Assembly (NCBI GenBank): GCA_951406725.2
Contig: OX597820.1
Coordinates: 79,856,001-79,920,000, forward strand
Direction of reading: 5' to 3'
Origin: Octopus vulgaris
Taxonomy: Eukaryota
DNA length: 64,000 nucleotides
The notes below the pieces were generated by a model. That model did not search any database. It saw nothing but the letters and a program-made list of their open reading frames with translations, and was not told the DNA's origin. Made by a program: the position numbers and the translations under genes. This document shows, one piece after another, positions 1,211-51,686 of this stretch. The stretch's first letter is position 1, and the number at the start of each line of letters is the position of its first letter.

Positions 1211-1275
<65 letters not shown>

Positions 1276-1501
1276 GAAATATTAAAATTACTAAGTCTCT
1301 CTAAAAGAGAACAGCGGCAGCGTTCCCGGAAAATAATAGTTATCGCCATACTAATATGGCATTCTTATAAAAATAAGAATAAAGCTGTCCGCTTATTAGC
1401 TCCATGAGGCCATCGCCTTAAGTTAGCTATTTGATACACAAACTGTATCCATATAACCTTCGAACAAGGGAGGTCAGTCGCTCCACACTACTTGACCGGC
1501 A

Positions 1502-1543
1502 GCTACAGACGCGTTTCGGAGTATTGCCCCTTTTCAATGCAGC
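1502..1543 (-). ncRNA. Minimal hammerhead ribozyme, minus-strand copy
   Basis: Reverse complement of the motif. One C>U change in helix II gives a G-U wobble. Confidence 0.75.
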
Positions 1544-1863
1544 GTAGCCAGCCAGTAGGTGTCGCTTCTGACAATCTCTGTTCGATGGTTTTATTTACCT
1601 AGTTTCGGTGGAATACATCCACTTGTTTTCAATAATAGAAATATTAAAATTACTAAGTCTCTCTAAAAGAGAACAGCGGCAGCGTTCCCGGAAAATAATA
1701 GTTATCGCCATACTAATATGGCATTCTTATAAAAATAAGAATAAAGCTGTCCGCTTATTAGCTCCATGAGGCCATCGCCTTAAGTTAGCTATTTGATACA
1801 CAAACTGTATCCATATAACCTTCGAACAAGGGAGGTCAGTCGCTCTACACTACTTGACCGGCA

Positions 1864-1905
1864 GCTACAGACGCGTTTCGGGGTATTGCCCCTTTTGAAT
1901 GCAGC
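1864..1905 (-). ncRNA. Hammerhead copy with a core mutation (G5C), probably inactive
   Basis: The core reads UUCAAAA instead of UUGAAAA. Confidence 0.65.
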
Positions 1906-2284
1906 GTAGCCAGCCAGTAGGTGTCGCTTCCGACAATCTCTGTTCGATGGTTTTATTTACCTAGTTTCGGTCAAGTAGTGTGGAGCGACTGACCTCCCTT
2001 GTTCGAAGGTTATATGGATACAGTTTGTGTATCAAATAGCTAACTTAAGGCGATGGCCTCATGGAGCTAATAAGCGGACAGCTTTATTCTTATTTTTATA
2101 AGAATGCCATATTAGTATGGCGATAACTATTATTTTCCGGGAACGCTGCCGCTGTTCTCTTTTAGAGAGACTTAGTAATTTTAATATTTCTATTATTGAA
2201 AACAAGTGGATGTATTCCACCGAAACTAGGTAAATAAAACCATCGAACAGAGATTGTCAGAAGCGACACCTACTGGCTGGCTAC

Positions 2285-2326
2285 GCTGCATTGAAAAGGG
2301 GCAATACCCCGAAACGCGTCTGTAGC
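2285..2326 (+). ncRNA. Minimal type I hammerhead ribozyme (U3-A8 variant), predicted cleavage after 2320
   Basis: GCUGCA | UUGAAAA | GGGG-CAAUA-CCCC | GAAA | CGCG | UC | UGUAGC. This gives helix I, core, helix II, GAAA, palindromic helix III and a GUC site. Confidence 0.8.
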
Positions 2327-2854
2327 TGCCGGTCAAGTAGTGTGGAGCGACTGACCTCCCTTGTTCGAAGGTTATATGGATACAGTTTGTGTATCAAATA
2401 GCTAACTTAAGGCGATGGCCTCATGGAGCTAATAAGCGGACAGCTTTATTCTTATTTTTATAAGAATGCCATATTAGTATGGCGATAACTATTATTTTCC
2501 GGGAACGCTGCCGCTGTTCTCTTTTAGAGAGACTTAGTAATTTTAATATTTCTATTATTGAAAACAAGTGGATGTATTCCACCGAAACTAGGTAAATAAA
2601 ACCATCGAACAGAGATTGTCAGAAGCGACACCTACTGATTTTTCCTTGGATTACGTCGGATTATTTTATGCTGTAAGCTGTTATGTTAGTTCGTTCTGTT
2701 CTGGATTTAAACGTACAATTTTTGGAGTATTAACTTGTGGAACAAAGTAATTTTCGCCCTTCGGGGTAGAAAATTTCTTTTTATATATGAACTTTAATTC
2801 AGTGTGGAATTAATTTTTATCTTGTCTCTTGTGACAAGTCACTTGCATTTTAAT

Positions 2855-4273
2855 ATGGATCTTGACTTAACGTCAAATTCTGATTTTCCCGAGATAGGAG
2901 AAGTTATAAAAAATGGAAATCAAATGGATACAAAGGAGAAACAAAGTTTTTCGGAAGCCGTTGGAGGCAATGTTATAGAACTGGAAGTAACAATGGAGGA
3001 TCTCTTCAAGTTCAGAAAGTTCATACAAAGGAATGGAGAAGAAACGAGAATAATACCGCCCCCTGACACCTTACAAGCAATCCGTGAGAAGACGGTAATT
3101 TATAAGGTATATAATATTAAGGAAAAAAAGATTGCAGATGTAAGAAATGAATTGGTAGAACGGTGCATGGCACCAATTTGGAACAAGGTTCGCTATGTTG
3201 GCCGAGGAGTGAGAAGCGCTACTATTGAAGCGCATTTCGAGTCGGCTAGCATAGCGAAGGAAATTTCAACTCAAACGTTGAAGAGTGCAGACATCCTGTT
3301 GCTGCCCACGTACTTAGGGCGCAGAACAGCTAAGATAACAATAGAGGATATACCAACAGGTTACGATGTAATGTGGGCAGCAACAGCGGTCGTATTCGAC
3401 GTAGAAGAGAAATTAAACATTTTAAACATGAGGATGAAAGAGGCAAAATTTTGGAAAGGTCAGCAGCTTGAAATGATCGTTCAAGCTGACAATGCAACGC
3501 TGGAGAGTTTGCCAGACAGGGTCTTCGTGGGGGACGGACACACTGCGCGGATATCGGTGGAGGGACGTAGGCCCAGATGTTTCAAATGTGGGCAGAAGGG
3601 TCACGTCCGCTCAGAGTGCAAAAAGAAAAAACCCGTTAATGCCCCCATTCAAACCGCTGTGGAGAACAAAGCAGACATCACAGCAACAACAAAAGAGAAT
3701 ACCCGGAAAAAGCAAAATGAAAGTCAAAAGGAGGAAAAGAAAATGAATGGAAAACAAAGCGAAAACGAAAACGAGGTGGAAAATATTTTATCAAATGGAA
3801 AAGAACTGGAAGTAATGGAATATACGACTGTAACCAACAAAAGGAAGAAATCCAATACCCCGGACTCCCCACCCCAAACAAAAAGAAAAACAAACGCAGA
3901 AGAACAACACAAAAAAATTATCCAATCCCACCCCGCTGGCACTACTTTTGTAGGCCAGCATTTCATTAAACCCCAGCCCCCAACTTTAAAAGGATTCAAA
4001 AAAACCGATAGGTGCATTGCTTATAACACAAAAAACGAGAGAGTAGTTTGGTACATAAAGGCGAAACCAAACATAAAATGTTTCAAATCATCGGAAAAAA
4101 ACCCGGATTGGAGGTATGCGAAGGTTGGAGAGGAGGAATGGAAGGAGAGACTATTCCAACTACACGTGAGGGACAACCTGATTAAAGATGTCACACAAGA
4201 GGTGATAGCTGGAAAATTGAATATTAGCCCGGCAGCCACTCCATCCCAGAGCCCGGTGGCAAACGCCGGTTAA
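2855..4273 (+). CDS. LINE ORF1 (gag-like nucleic-acid-binding protein with zinc knuckle), about 472 aa
   Basis: Open frame 2804-4273 with first ATG at 2855 (MDLDL). CX2CX4HX4C knuckle CFKCGQKGHVRSEC followed by a basic, low-complexity region, as is typical of Tx1/L1 ORF1. Confidence 0.88.
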   Translation: MDLDLTSNSDFPEIGEVIKNGNQMDTKEKQSFSEAVGGNVIELEVTMEDLFKFRKFIQRNGEETRIIPPPDTLQAIREKTVIYKVYNIKEKKIADVRNELVERCMAPIWNKVRYVGRGVRSATIEAHFESASIAKEISTQTLKSADILLLPTYLGRRTAKITIEDIPTGYDVMWAATAVVFDVEEKLNILNMRMKEAKFWKGQQLEMIVQADNATLESLPDRVFVGDGHTARISVEGRRPRCFKCGQKGHVRSECKKKKPVNAPIQTAVENKADITATTKENTRKKQNESQKEEKKMNGKQSENENEVENILSNGKELEVMEYTTVTNKRKKSNTPDSPPQTKRKTNAEEQHKKIIQSHPAGTTFVGQHFIKPQPPTLKGFKKTDRCIAYNTKNERVVWYIKAKPNIKCFKSSEKNPDWRYAKVGEEEWKERLFQLHVRDNLIKDVTQEVIAGKLNISPAATPSQSPVANAG

Positions 4274-4370
4274 ATGCCCAGCAACAACGGAGAGTGTGGG
4301 GGAGGCAGGCAGACAAAAGCTGCCATGCTCCCTCTCACAACCGTAAGTAACAAACTTTCTTCATTCATCG

Positions 4371-7300
4371 ATGATTAAGTTGGGCTGTATAAATGTGCGT
4401 GGAATGGGGTCGAAATGGAAACAGGCTTGCTTGCTGGACGACCTCAGGACACACAGAATAGATGTAGCCATTGTCACCGAGTCCAAGATGAGAGGAACCC
4501 AAGCGTTCTCGCATCTTCTCAATGGTTACGAGAAATGTATTTCTCCTAGCCGAGGAGGGAGTGCAGGCGTGGCAGTCCTTATCAGGAAGAACTTGGACTT
4601 ACAGGTAAGTACTGTCTTTATGGACCCAGAAGGTAGGCTGGTTGTCCTCGATGTAACTCACGTGAGTAAGCAGTCCTTCAGGTTGGTAGCTGTTTATGCT
4701 CCTAATGAGGGTAGGCAGACTGGTTTTTATCGGAACTTGGAGCACTTTCTAGTGACGTCTAAAACGGTAGTATTGGTAGGGGATTTCAACACTATCATCG
4801 ATGCGCGGATAGATAGTGTGGGCTCGTCTGATAGAAGGGGGAATCCTTGCCTTAAGGGTCTACTGACGAGCTTTAATCTAGTAGATCGGTTTCGAATGGA
4901 TGAGCCGAGCATTCCACAGTGGACGTGGAGTAACAATGACGGCTCACGCAGATCGTATATAGATAGGGTATTTGTTAAAGAACGAGATAGGAATAGCATT
5001 AGCTGTCCACAATTTTGTATTGTGCCTTACACGGATCACAAATTAGTGACGTGTGAGGTACATGTAGATAAATGCCATAGACAGGGACCCGGATACTGGA
5101 AAATGAACAAGTCTATTTTGGCTTGTGAAGCTTTCCGTAACCGGATTATGGAATTAGTCCAGAGGGCATTTTGTGGAACCATCATTAATAATAGATGGTG
5201 GATCGCCCTCAAAAGAGCCATCCGTTTGGAGTCCATTAGATTTAGCAACCAGCTAAGTTTAGATAGGACTAGAATAGAGGGCGATTTAGTTAAGAACTTA
5301 GACGAGGCAATGGGATCTGGCTGTGCATCTAGAGTGTTAGCAGAGAGAACGATCTTGTACCGTCACCTCAATGCCAAGCATGAAGGATGTAGAGTCAGAG
5401 CTAAGCTACGTGCAGTGAAACGAGAAGGTATTAATGTTGCCGGATGGGCACGTCGTGTGGAGAGTCAGAAGGGCAAAAAGTCCTCTATTAAGTCTTTAAC
5501 TGACGAACAGGGACGCAAAATCTATGGACAGGAGGAGATACAGAAGGTCTTTCAACAGCATTTCGCTCGGTTGTTTGGGGAGGGCGATCCACTCGAGCGA
5601 GGGGAGGACTTACAGAACTTCCTAGCTGGTGGGCCTCGGCTCTCGCCAAGCAGAGCGGAACGCTGTGAAGGACCGATTACTCCCGCGGAGGTAAGAGGGG
5701 TTTTGGCTGAATGCGCCCGGGAAAAGTCGCCGGGACTGGATGGTCTGCCCTATGAGTTTTATTGTTGTATGCCGGACTTGTTCGGGGACATACTGGCAAG
5801 CGTCAACGCAAACTGGCAACAGAATGGGAGGATTCCCAGTTCTGTGAGCCGGGGAGTTGTGACGCTGATCCAGAAAGACCCGAGGAAGGGGGATAATATT
5901 AGTAATTATAGGCCCATAACTCTACTTAATGTAGAGTTAAAGATTTTGGCCAAGGTGTTAGCAGAAAGGTTGAAGGTCGTCATGGAAAAACTTGTCAGAA
6001 AGGCACAGACATGTGCAATCCCAGGCAGGTCGATCGAAGATAATCTTCACCTTCTACGCTACACTATAGACAGGGTTGGGCAATTAGCCGGCAAAGGAGG
6101 GGCATTGGTCCATTTAGACCAAAGTAAAGCATTTGATAGGGTAGATCATCAGTACCTGGCGACGGTTCTCGAAGCGGCTGGGCTAGGTCCTGACTTTCGC
6201 GGGTGGATATCAGCTATGTACAGCGGTATCAAGTCCACAGTCCAGATAAACGGTTACTTAACGGAACCGTTTTCGATTAAGCGTTCAGTTCGTCAAGGAT
6301 GTCCCTTGTCCCCTCTCCTGTACGTTTTGGCTCTTGAGCCATTGCTGCGGGAGTTGGAGACGGTGAGATGCAATCCTAATGAAATCGGATGCGGTAAGTC
6401 TGTTTCTGCGTATGCGGATGACGTCACCTTCATCGTGTCCAACGAAGCACAACTAACTCGTGTAGAAGGTGCTCTCCGAAGATACGAAGCGGTGGCTGGG
6501 GCAAAAGTTAACAAGGACAAGTCCACTGGTTTGCGCCTCGGCACCTGGAGGAACAAGCCGATATCGTCCAGTGTTGTTGGACACTGGACAGATGGTCCTG
6601 TTAAATTGCTTGGAGTTTGGTTTGGTTCAGACTCCCAGACGGAGAAAAATTGGAGCGAGGTAGTGACCAAGGTAGAAGCCATAGTTCGGGAGTGGTCCGG
6701 AAGGCATCTTTCCTTGAAAGGGAGGGCGGAGGTGGTACAGGTGTTTATAGCATCTGTAATCACCTATCGCCTGACTGTCGTGCCTTGCCCCGATTTGTGG
6801 CTAAGCAAGTTGGATCGACTCCTTTTCCGCATTTTGTGGAAGGGAAGAAAGTCACTTGTAAGGCGCTCCGTGTGTTGCCAGGAACCACTAAAGGGTGGGC
6901 TGGGGATGCCTTGGTTAATGATGCGCAGGCATGCGCTGAGACTGAGACATCTCTGGTTTCACCTGGAAGGTGATAAGGTGTGGAGTCCGCTGGCAGATAA
7001 TTTCTTCCCGCAACCGGACTCTATGGAGAGATTTAAACCCGGTTTCATTAAAAGACGGAACCTGACTTTATGACAGAAAGAGTGCCGACAGGCACTCTGG
7101 CTGATCCACAAGATAGGCAAAGCCGGCTGCGGGAATACCACCTCGACATTTTATAGAAGGATGGTAGAGGCAAAAAATGACGACGTCCTAAGAGGGGCTC
7201 TGGGGTTCGATGAGGATCAACTATCCGACCTGTTTAAGAAGACTTTCAAGCCGGGGTATTTGGACAATTACCAAAAATCCCTGACTTGGCAGTGCTATAG

Positions 7301-7769
7301 GAATGCTCTACCTGTTCGCGATAAGTTATATAGGCATGGAATGTCAGTGCCACCGACATGTCCAAGATGTGGGTTGGACGATGAAACCGTCCAGCACGCT
7401 TTTGTACATTGTCAGGAGCTGTCAGGCTTAATAAGTTACGTAGAACACGTGTTGTCGCATCTGGGACGAGTACAGCTATCGGCTGGTTCTATAATAAAGA
7501 TGATACCGCCAGCTGGACTCTCAAAGGAAGGTGAGGCTTGTTTTCACTGTACGGTGGCAGTACTGAAAGAGTGTGTGTGGAGAACTAGATTGGAAGGTTT
7601 GGTGTCAGGAACCTTTGTCTCTGGATATGGTATGTTAAAATACTTCAGATACCATCTAAAGAGCAAGATGGATTTAGAGAAGAGGAACCTGACACAGAAA
7701 AAGTATGTGAATCGATGGAAGGATGTGATAAAAAAGGTGGGTGTGAGTAACCCTGCTTGGTCATCATGA
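4371..7769 (+). CDS. LINE ORF2 (AP endonuclease + reverse transcriptase + C-terminal CCHC), about 1132 codons, interrupted by one in-frame TGA at 7071-7073
   Basis: APE motifs INVRG, VYAP, GDFN, YIDRVF, TDH. RT motifs KSPGLDG, YRPITLLN, DQSKAFDRV, RQGCPLSPLLY, YADD. C-terminal CPRC...HAFVHC. ORF 7161-7769 is in frame with 4371 and the segment 7074-7160 is open. Confidence 0.93.
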
Positions 7770-8032
7770 AGGGAGAAAATAGTCTCTGGGCTCTTAGGCT
7801 GTCGGGTAAGAATCCTGACTGTGATATACCTAGCTGGCCAAAATCATTTTTAATTTAAAAAAAAAAAAGGAGAAAGTAAAGTTTAGTATCATAATCAATA
7901 ATCAACATATGTAAATATCAAACGAACAACGTAAACTTTTTGTAATTATGTTTTGTATTGTAATGTACTATCTCTGTAAGATTTTTATAATCATAATAAA
8001 GATTTTAGAAGCGACACCTACTGGCTGGCTAC

Positions 8033-8074
8033 GCTGCATTGAAAAGGGGCAATACCCCGAAACGCGTCTGTAGC
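8033..8074 (+). ncRNA. Minimal type I hammerhead ribozyme (same family), predicted cleavage after 8068
   Basis: Same motif as 2285-2326. Confidence 0.8.
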
Positions 8075-8394
8075 TGCCGGTCAAGTAGTGTGGAGCGACT
8101 GACCTCCCTTGTTCGAAGGTTATATGGATACAGTTTGTGTATCAAATAGCTAACTTAAGGCGATGGCCTCATGGAGCTAATAAGCGGACAGCTTTATTCT
8201 TATTTTTATAAGAATGCCATATTAGTATGGCGATAACTATTATTTTCCGGGAACGCTGCCGCTGTTCTCTTTTAGAGAGACTTAGTAATTTTAATATTTC
8301 TATTATTGAAAACAAGTGGATGTATTCCACCGAAACTAGGTAAATAAAACCATCGAACAGAGATTGTCAGAAGCGACACCTACTGGCTGGCTAC

Positions 8395-8436
8395 GCTGCA
8401 TTGAAAAGGGGCAATACCCCGAAACGCGTCTGTAGC
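8395..8436 (+). ncRNA. Minimal type I hammerhead ribozyme (same family)
   Basis: Same motif as 2285-2326. Confidence 0.8.
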
Positions 8437-8599
8437 TGCCGGTCAAGTAGTGTGGAGCGACTGACCTCCCTTGTTCGAAGGTTATATGGATACAGTTTGT
8501 GTATCAAATAGCTAACTTAAGGCGATGGCCTCATGGAGCTAATAAGCGGACAGCTTTATTCTTATTTTTATAAGAATGCCATATTAGTATGGCGATAAC

Positions 8600-8643
<44 letters not shown>

Positions 8644-14267: not shown

Positions 14268-14830
14268 GTTTGCACGCCGGGCGAAATGCTTAGCGGTATT
14301 TCACCTGCCGTTACGTTCTGAGTTCAAATTCCGCCGAGGTCGACTTTGCCTTTCATTATTTCGGGGTCGATTAAATAAGTACCAGTTACGCACTGGGGTC
14401 GATATAATCGACCTAATCCGTTTGTCTTTCCCTGTTTGTCCTCTCTGTGTTTAGACCCTTGTGGGTAGTAAAGAAATAGGTATTTCGTCTGCAGTTACGT
14501 ATTGAGTTCAGATTTCACCAAGGTCGACTTTACCTTTCACCTTTCGGGGTCGATAAATTAAGTACCAGCTACGCACTGGGGTCGATATAATCGACTTAAT
14601 CTCTTTGTCTGTCATTGTTTGTCCCCTCTAAGTTTAGCCCCTTGTGGGCAAGAAATAAATAAAAAAGAAATAAGAATAGTTAGCACTTCGGGCACATTGC
14701 TTCGTGACCTGACTCGTTACGATCTGAGTTCAAATCCTGGCGAAGTCAACTTTGTCTTTCATACCTTTTGGATCGATAAAACAAAGCACCAGTCAATTAC
14801 ACGAGATCCATATAATAGGCTTGTCTCTTC
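14268..14830 (+). mobile_element. SINE family B, multimeric copy
   Basis: Head at 14268, followed by three successive core modules. Confidence 0.82.
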
Positions 14831-50240: not shown

Positions 50241-51686
50241 AAAAAAGGTTTGAAAATGCAATTTAAACGATGTTTATTTACTTAACCGGTTTCACTCTTT
50301 GGTAAAAGATTGTCAAAAGTTACATTTAAGGAAACATTGAATAATATGGGTTCAAAAAAGTTTTTTACATAATTGTCACATTGAATATTATGCATTCAAA
50401 AAAGTTTTTTACATAATTGTCACATTGGATATTATGGGTTCAAAAAAGTTTTTTACATAATTGTCACATTGAATATTATGCATTCAAAAAAGTTTTTTAC
50501 ATAATTGTCACATTGGATATTATGAATTCAAAAATGTTTTTTTATACATAATTGTCACATTATTTGGGAAAATTTGGCAGAAAAGGATAAAACAAATATA
50601 TTATTGGGAATTGGTTGCGTTAATTATTGGTTGTCGCAAATTGTCACATTACATGTATATATATACAATCTTTGGTATATATATACAGCGTTTTGACAGC
50701 AAAAATTAAAATGGATTTTTTGTCCATCTCAGAATATTTTAAGTATGTTTTTACTGACCTGTTAGTATTAGCAGAAAGGCTGAACTGAGAGAACAGAAGT
50801 AGCCAATGTGGTGTATACTTCCCCTTTATGCATGAATGATTTTGGGGTTATCAGGAGGTTAGTATGCGGGTGTGAATAGATGTGTCCGTGCCTGCTGGTC
50901 AGACAGCGTCTGTTTGTCACACACATATATATACACACAAACACACACACACACACAACAACACACGTGTGTGTGTGTTTGTGTGTATATATATGTGTGT
51001 GACAAACAGACGCTGTCTGACCAGCAGGCACGGACACATCTATTCACACCCGCATACTAACCTCCTGATAACCCCAAAATCATTCATGCATAAAGGGGAA
51101 GTATACACCACATTGGCTACTTCTGTTCTCTCAGTTCAGCCTTTCTGCTAATACTAACAGGTCAGTAAAAACATACTTAAAATATTCTGAGATGGACAAA
51201 AATCCATTTTAATTTTTGCTGTCAAAACGCTGTATATATATACCAAAGATTGTATATATATACATGTAATGTGACAATTTGCGACAACCAATAATTAACG
51301 CAACCAATTCCCAATAATATATTTGTTTTATCCTTTTCTGCCAAATTTTCCCAAATAATGTGACAATTATGTATAAAAAAACATTTTTGAATTCATAATA
51401 TCCAATGTGACAATTATGTAAAAAACTTTTTTGAATGCATAATATTCAATGTGACAATTATGTAAAAAACTTTTTTGAACCCATAATATCCAATGTGACA
51501 ATTATGTAAAAAACTTTTTTGAATGCATAATATTCAATGTGACAATTATGTAAAAAACTTTTTTTGAACCCATATTATTCAATGTTTCCTTAAATGTAAC
51601 TTTTGACAATCTTTTACCAAAGAGTGAAACCGGTTAAGTAAATAAACATCGTTTAAATTGCATTTTCAAACCTTTTTTCTTATATA
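50233..51686. repeat. Near-perfect 1.45-kb palindrome (about 720-bp arms)
   Basis: The arms are reverse complements around about 50960. Mirrored ORFs appear in the track (50768-51037 - / 50882-51151 +). Confidence 0.95.
50351..50562. repeat. 44-bp tandem repeat x about 5 (mirrored at about 51358-51570)
   Basis: TTCAAAAAAG-like starts at 50351, 50395, 50439, 50483 and 50527. The variants alternate, giving an 88-bp higher-order unit. Confidence 0.9.

Follow-up and report, generated by a model that had tools for sequence, protein, structure and literature searches.

How does a retrotransposon come to insert at one exact base of a short, self-cleaving repeat, and from which RNA is it copied there? 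These questions are raised by a locus within a 64,000-nucleotide stretch of the Octopus vulgaris genome (contig OX597820.1, positions 79,856,001 to 79,920,000; termed here the window), in which a long interspersed nuclear element (LINE) of 5369 bp, without a poly(A) tail (2638..8006, forward strand), lies inside a retrozyme, that is, a tandem repeat with a hammerhead ribozyme in each 362-bp unit. A preliminary description of this locus held that the LINE had inserted into the repeat with a 17-bp target-site duplication (TSD), that its family might target the repeat, and that host transcription and host ribozymes might supply its RNA ends. The insertion itself is plain: the longest direct repeat spanning both LINE junctions is 17 bp (2621..2637 on the left and 8007..8023 on the right, both on the forward strand), and once the LINE and one TSD are taken out the forward repeat becomes a 1249-nt sequence of period 362 with 0 mismatches.

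That the family as a whole targets this base follows from its other copies. A search with the last 200 bp of the LINE gave 40 matches, 30 of which were retrieved; 20 of these join the retrozyme at the identical base and the other 10 form a diverged sister group. An exact 3'-end pattern finds 28 ends (21 from the window family and 7 from the sisters), and a junction pattern recovers those 21 and adds 19 ends of another family and 1 further end, the control giving 4. Within this young family, whose 20 alignable copies differ by 0-1.9%, every one of the 21 3' ends, spread over 16 loci and 10 contigs, adjoins the same retrozyme base, none of them through a poly(A) tail, and all 16 full 5' junctions begin directly after the TSD. 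Exact intact target sites, empty or 5'-side, number about 1119 in the genome and cover about 7e-6 of it, and about 2% of retrozyme target sites hold a LINE. Targeting of the retrozyme site by the LINE is, with very little doubt, real, as had been suggested from the single copy in the window.

The targeted base lies downstream of a promoter-like motif. In the window, a motif resembling that of U1 and U2 small nuclear RNA (snRNA) genes, and predicted to be an snRNA-type proximal element (2562..2578, forward strand), has its core end at 2570, exactly 50 nt before the TSD and hence the nick. Among 30 U1 5' ends, 21 likewise have the motif ending 50-52 nt ahead of +1, and in 2 U2 genes the distance is 50-51 nt. 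A matrix built from 7 U1/U2 promoters only has its top site (rank 1/284) at 47-51 nt upstream of the nick in five of five retrozyme families tested, with 0, 2, 3, 4 and 0 of 2000 shuffles, respectively, scoring as high. Beyond this upstream motif, the retrozyme and snRNA targets share little sequence. An snRNA-type RNA polymerase II (Pol II) promoter has been described for a hammerhead satellite before, namely newt satellite 2 (available passages of PMC2220036). An RNA polymerase III (Pol III) promoter of the U6 type was considered and rejected: the motif is absent from 20 U6 loci, 4 of which score negative on the matrix; a run of five Ts directly after the TSD also disfavours it. Because the TSD begins 50 nt after the U1/U2-type motif, the RNA 5' end is likely to be 2621, which makes the left TSD the predicted positions +1 to +17 of the retrozyme transcript; the RNA would then span 5448 nt to the hammerhead cut at 8068, rather than begin at 2321 as first proposed. 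Of the 20 database records that contain the stretch, from 6 studies and 3 organisms, none is listed as RNA.

The reading that best accommodates these findings, and to which we give a probability of roughly 0.6, is that an L1-group (Tx1-like) LINE inserts at the predicted start of an snRNA-type promoter's transcript and borrows that promoter. The wider proposition, that the LINE clade picks its targets by promoter class (the first bases of snRNA-type, SNAPc-dependent Pol II units) and is retargeted by its host RNA tail, is advanced more tentatively, at somewhat less than even odds. Mechanistically, the host promoter would start an RNA at the first base of the TSD (2621), so that the RNA would consist of 17 host bases followed by the LINE; transcription would read through the LINE end into the host and would be ended after an AATAAA signal or, at this locus, by the hammerhead 62 nt further on. 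At a new target the endonuclease would nick at +1 and about +17, and the host-derived 3' tail would pair with the nicked strand, with reverse transcription starting exactly at the LINE end and copying no poly(A). Each insertion would remake the target site and would thereby yield tandem LINE-TSD-LINE stacks. Probably because promoter context and the inherited tail both help to choose the site, subfamilies could switch among U1, U2 and retrozymes with little protein change. Of the earlier proposal, the borrowing of host transcription and of a short 3' tail that matches the target probably stands; that two hammerheads define the RNA ends is not supported in the form proposed.

The same geometry recurs without any ribozyme in the sister group, which is 2-8% diverged from the retrozyme-targeting clade (clade support 100/99). 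One of its 10 members is flanked by a U1 5' end (+1, confirmed with Rfam); 8 of the remaining 9 have flanks that open with 3-7 bases matching the U1 start (ATAC look-alike sites), and another sister follows an earlier element after the first 17 bases of U1, which is the length of the TSD. The sisters at U1 sites show an identical 17-bp TSD geometry. In L110 the U1-like flank bases fall within a 10-bp TSD and therefore belong to the target, and in L109 and L483 positions +1 to +17/18 of U1 stand at the 5' end of an element with non-U1 flanks, far from any U1 gene, which fits an RNA starting at the host +1. Between the U1 and the retrozyme TSD, 6 of 17 bases agree, and within the first 153 residues of the endonuclease 3 set the two U1-type copies apart from the retrozyme type, with 1 more differing between the U1-type copies themselves. 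Within a U1 gene cluster, a pile of at least 10 related LINE fragments of mixed age (L118-L123, G000:C18:48.998-49.055 Mb; more than 12 kb, 64-97% identity) starts about 49 nt downstream of a promoter motif of the U1 type. There are at least two kinds of U1 promoter (L302, L305, L307 and L308 versus L309-L330), and a truncated sister on C18 lies behind the minor kind.

More distant relatives extend the pattern to other retrozymes. A 1.7-kb element with ORF1 only (the L180 type; ORF, open reading frame), whose ORF1 is 27% identical over 235 residues, occupies the equivalent site in an older form of the repeat, and ORF1-only relatives are found just 5' of hammerheads in several retrozyme families unrelated in sequence. 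Related-family 3' ends number 110 (0 in the control), of which 100 listed ends were classed by eye: 60 reach a hammerhead core within 56 nt, 21 join a retrozyme start that gives way to another element or to other DNA, 1 joins U2 at +1 (Rfam), and 18 are of other kinds. The cores lie 21-38 nt beyond the shared 3' motif, the distance from nick to hammerhead being variable. Two-ORF relatives with 88-90% ORF2 DNA identity reside in two other retrozyme families. In an endonuclease tree (midpoint root, weak inner support) the fragments of the U1 pile fall within neither retrozyme-targeting group, so that repeated target switching in the clade, though not its order, is suggested. The ORF1-only 1.7-kb elements (L180:2541-6117, at G000:C1:121.026-121.030 Mb; L251-L300, L351-L380 and L461-L489) occupy the same kind of site in many retrozyme families, and tandem stacks of them, with one another or with two-ORF elements, are frequent.

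In metagenome contigs, distant relatives (26-38% identity, 80 loci) flank U1 (L381, L391, L402, L403, L447), U2 at a Keno-like site (L390, L416, L432, L438, L456, L459) and U4 (L430, L442, L445), which argues that snRNA targeting itself is widespread. A pattern search found no hammerhead at the element end in these 80 loci, 20 of which were also covered by an Rfam scan. U1 and U4 are not among the targets given for the Tx1 group in the available literature passages.

The ribozyme at the insertion site is a type I hammerhead, present at 2270..2340 and 8018..8088 (both on the forward strand; the former identical in sequence to the copy that was folded). Its predicted GUC cuts after 2320 and after 8068, the latter 62 nt beyond the LINE end, reproduce as predictions those given earlier, including the 5748-nt span between them, and a third is predicted after 8430. 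The fold comprises an extended helix I, a helix II of 4 bp, a core of the U3-A8 variant and a palindromic helix III of minimal length; the final TSD bases form the opening of the extended helix I, an overlap likewise seen at the outset. The minimum free energy is -34.6 kcal/mol (z -4.0; 0 of 200 shuffles equally stable). Across 12 hammerhead variants 93% of cells are paired and 2 pairs are changed on both sides; the covariation score is matched by 0 of 500 shuffles and slid controls are 26-53% paired, figures that carry no probability since the 12 sequences are related. Because Rfam gives 0 matches to the window hammerhead, its identity rests on folding, on covariation and on what we take to be the core consensus. 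Rfam, which misses this flanking hammerhead too, also gives no match over the LINE 5' region (2621-2900, E up to 1). In at least six retrozyme families (L071, L352-L378) the hammerhead core is a variant one (U3-A8; C at position 4) and goes unrecognised by Rfam. A helix III that is short and palindromic points to dimer-dependent cleavage (available passages of PMC4209133), and the window hammerhead may by analogy need a partner for its predicted cleavage. Because the U1-type sisters have none, the hammerhead is not required; it would be a property of the host, optional for the LINE, and may here trim the 3' tail to 62 nt.

Several findings weigh against insertion at a borrowed start site, and some of them lend weight to other explanations. 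Out of sample, 2 of 7 evaluable promoter-side junctions lie at 49-52 nt from the motif and 4 at 56-63 nt (the seventh is confounded by TA expansion, and most retrieved loci have no evaluable promoter-side junction), so that the spacing between motif and nick is not fixed across the clade; one sublineage nicks at 56-63 nt, that is, 6-13 nt further downstream. Insertion by the clade would so fall within about 13 bases of the predicted transcript start, with two or more registers in use. The retrozyme promoter motif often lies in a palindrome and could be an RNA hairpin instead; a LINE 3' end stands at +1 in 1 of the 30 U1 5' ends examined; of the first 30 related-family loci, 13 show a complete hammerhead pattern by a strict script, against an eye count of 18 that includes mutated cores; and off-target copies sit at short sequence look-alikes without a promoter, which indicates that local sequence also matters. 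Those off-target sisters, on ATAC-like sequence, would equally be expected if each subfamily possessed a sequence-specific endonuclease and promoter-proximal sites had been kept by selection, only transcribed copies leaving descendants. Such an endonuclease would be in keeping with the view that it is mainly the endonuclease that determines the target in this group (PMC4494074, in the parts available), with the three substitutions that track the switch from U1 to retrozyme, and with the more downstream nick of the second sublineage. We nevertheless hold it to be unlikely, if a serious contender: the targets of close relatives match at so few of their 17 bases, ORF1-only elements with a near-identical 3' end occur in many unrelated retrozyme families as well as at U2, and tail pairing accounts equally well for the ATAC bias.

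Considerably less probable is the mechanism with which the study of this locus began, in which two hammerheads cut a host read-through RNA to a 5748-nt template, possibly circularised, the ribozymes defining both ends. Intact hammerheads do stand on both sides of the LINE, one LINE-unit-LINE joint on C2 matches a monomer repeat, and for retrozymes of coral, mussel and axolotl both cut monomers and circles have been published (PMC7229834, available passages). Yet the U1-type sisters, without a ribozyme, keep the 17-bp geometry, and the AATAAA offers an alternative 3' end; the upstream retrozyme runs through the target site without a LINE at 8 of 16 loci, which makes a cut-to-cut circle unlikely as the usual template; at several loci the upstream unit stops short of its hammerhead; and helix III suggests a need for dimers, with a single downstream hammerhead at 13 of 16 loci. 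Slightly lower still do we rate the possibility that a few chance insertions were followed by joint copying of LINE and retrozyme by Penelope-type machinery, mimicking targeting. It would explain why 7 of the 8 youngest-subgroup loci share one repeat haplotype (binomial P 0.0007-0.06, depending on base rate), and two loci do resemble joint copying of LINE with repeat: in L097 the LINE is truncated and fused to an inverted arm through a 7-nt microhomology, and in L098 the post-LINE segment lacks the private changes of its array. A second LINE end (70 nt) within the inverted arm of L091 points the same way. Against this, the LINE of L096, a 5'-truncated member of the youngest subgroup with a TSD, sits in a different retrozyme haplotype with private changes on both sides, which argues for separate insertions; the three haplotype-B LINEs are not a clade, requiring 3 changes on the tree; three joints on C2 are of the form LINE-TSD-LINE, with only a TSD between elements; and independent lineages (27% ORF1 identity) occupy the equivalent site of other retrozyme families. 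We read the main mode as insertion by the LINE's own machinery and co-copying as minor, the latter perhaps explaining a minority of loci. One array (L105-L108, G000:C2:73.044-73.069 Mb) contains five near-identical tandem LINEs with 3 TSD-only joints and 1 whole-unit joint.

To which class does the inserted element belong? ORF1 (2855..4273, forward strand) encodes 472 residues with a zf-CCHC knuckle, and ORF2 (4371..7769, forward strand) encodes, by Pfam, an Exo_endo_phos domain (an apurinic-type, or AP-like, endonuclease), RVT_1 and zf-RVT. The element had been called a full-length two-ORF LINE; both ORFs do have the expected domains, and ORF2 is not intact, being interrupted by a single in-frame stop at codon 901 (7071-7073). 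An open ORF2 of 1132 residues is present in 9 of 20 same-family copies examined, and ORF1 has 493-496 residues in several other copies, versus 472 in the window. The catalytic motifs of ORF2 were located; its best match among solved structures is human L1 ORF2p (E 7e-67), with R2 at E 3e-23, and its protein homologues are unnamed except for a Ciona pol-like protein at 27% identity and two hypothetical proteins. The element shows the L1-group traits of an AP-like endonuclease, a reverse transcriptase, a C-terminal zinc motif, a TSD and 5' truncations (L096, L097, C2a); the usual poly(A) at the 3' junction is missing from all 21 copies despite an AATAAA inside the LINE 3' end (7995..8000, forward strand), 6 nt before the terminus, a signal that the related families examined also have at their 3' ends. 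A CCHC knuckle in ORF1 is typical of the Tx1 clade, and this, together with a site preference for a multicopy target, is what the element displays. It is, judged from its sequence, a member of the L1 group in all but the poly(A), and Tx1-like by its traits.

Comparison with known systems shows where the octopus element is familiar and where it departs from precedent (published work is cited here as far as its text was available). Known targets of the Tx1 clade include U2, microsatellites, and DNA and long terminal repeat (LTR) transposons (PMC4494074, PMC4640811); site-specific examples are Keno in U2 snRNA, Tx1L in Tx1D, the crocodilian Tx1-Mar in Mariner-N4, Tx1-8_Crp and Tx1-4_AMi in LTR elements, and Kibi and Koshi, and an occasional dependence on flanking transcription has been discussed (PMC4494074). 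Like these, the octopus LINE is an L1-group element with an AP endonuclease and a fixed site in a multicopy sequence, transposons included (PMC4494074). Unlike them, as far as the available text goes, its clade is directed at hammerhead retrozymes and the +1 of snRNA rather than at an internal U2 site or a DNA or LTR transposon, close relatives use unrelated targets with a common upstream motif, and the junctions have no poly(A). With R2 it shares site specificity and, on the reading proposed here, transcription by the host and a ribozyme in RNA processing; R2, however, has its own 5' ribozyme, resembling that of hepatitis delta virus, and a restriction-like endonuclease (PMC5035012), whereas here the ribozyme is the host's, lies 3' of the LINE and is absent from the U1 sisters. 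The host repeat, for its part, resembles animal non-LTR retrozymes (PMC7229834; bioRxiv 10.64898/2026.07.22.740005) in its 362-bp unit, 41% GC, type I hammerhead and dispersed short arrays. In their accessible portions neither of these two sources mentions a LINE parasite of retrozymes, and the latter is silent on Tx1, snRNA and promoter; a 2026 octopus repeat paper has, in its accessible portion, no mention of hammerhead, ribozyme, snRNA or nested. The literature yielded no report of a LINE that targets retrozymes, or start sites of the snRNA type as a class, with Repbase, most subscription journals and supplements lying outside the search.

Two further comparisons concern the choice of start sites and the ORF1-only relatives. 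Ty3 at Pol III start sites, the Dictyostelium elements TRE5 and TRE3, and Tf1 keep a set distance from a small-RNA promoter when they insert, their targets being otherwise unrelated. Those elements depend on Pol III or mRNA promoter factors and mostly land beside the gene, whereas the octopus LINE appears to land within the opening bases of a Pol II unit of the snRNA type. HAL1, or half-L1, elements encode ORF1 only, a layout shared by the 1.7-kb relatives; unlike HAL1, these target retrozyme and snRNA start sites and stack in tandem with two-ORF elements.

Site-specific LINEs are under development as gene-insertion tools, and how targets change is an open question. Relatives that are 2-8% apart, with targets matched at 6 of 17 bases and several open-ORF copies, offer a natural experiment on the contributions of endonuclease, tail and promoter. 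The LINE insertions moreover point to where animal retrozymes have their promoter and start site, the newt satellite being the only precedent found, and they reveal a system of three layers: retrozyme, LINE and ORF1-only hitchhiker. If the proposed reading is true, this is an RNA-assisted, switchable site-specific retrotransposon living on ribozyme parasites, one that changes targets with almost no change of endonuclease and whose insertions map retrozyme promoters.

The retrozyme array of the window consists of an inverted arm of about 1.9 units (1270..1971, reverse strand), whose outer end, at unit position 238, lies beside (TA)n; forward units of 362-bp period 5' of the LINE (1968..2637); and, downstream, one full unit plus 175 nt (8069..8605, forward strand, with the hammerhead predicted to cut after 8430), extending up to (TA)n, which thus stands at both ends of the array. 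The inverted arm differs from the forward repeat at 4 of 702 positions, and of its two hammerheads one is altered in the core. By the definition of non-LTR retrozymes as tandem units of 150-450 bp with GC below 50% and one type I hammerhead per unit, the host repeat (362 bp, GC 0.414, one such hammerhead per unit) qualifies by its sequence; it has more than 2300 units in the genome, in dispersed short arrays. Among the 12 long and 80 short loci scanned, out of these more than 2300 units, no ORF combining reverse transcriptase and GIY-YIG, as a Penelope partner would have, adjoins a retrozyme unit. A fragment resembling a Penelope GIY-YIG domain by eye, without a Pfam match, lies 1.8 kb from a retrozyme unit (L186:2223-2918).

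Inverted arms 5' of retrozyme arrays presumably resemble the arrangement of Penelope elements. In the window (1270-8605) and at other loci, arrays often consist of two head-to-head arms with outer ends at about 175 or about 238 of the unit, beside (TA)n, a layout which suggests that reverse transcription was primed twice and that the two products were joined 5' end to 5' end. Elsewhere in the window there are a 183-bp dimeric repeat (14295-14648) and two inverted arrays of a 44-bp unit (50334-51585).

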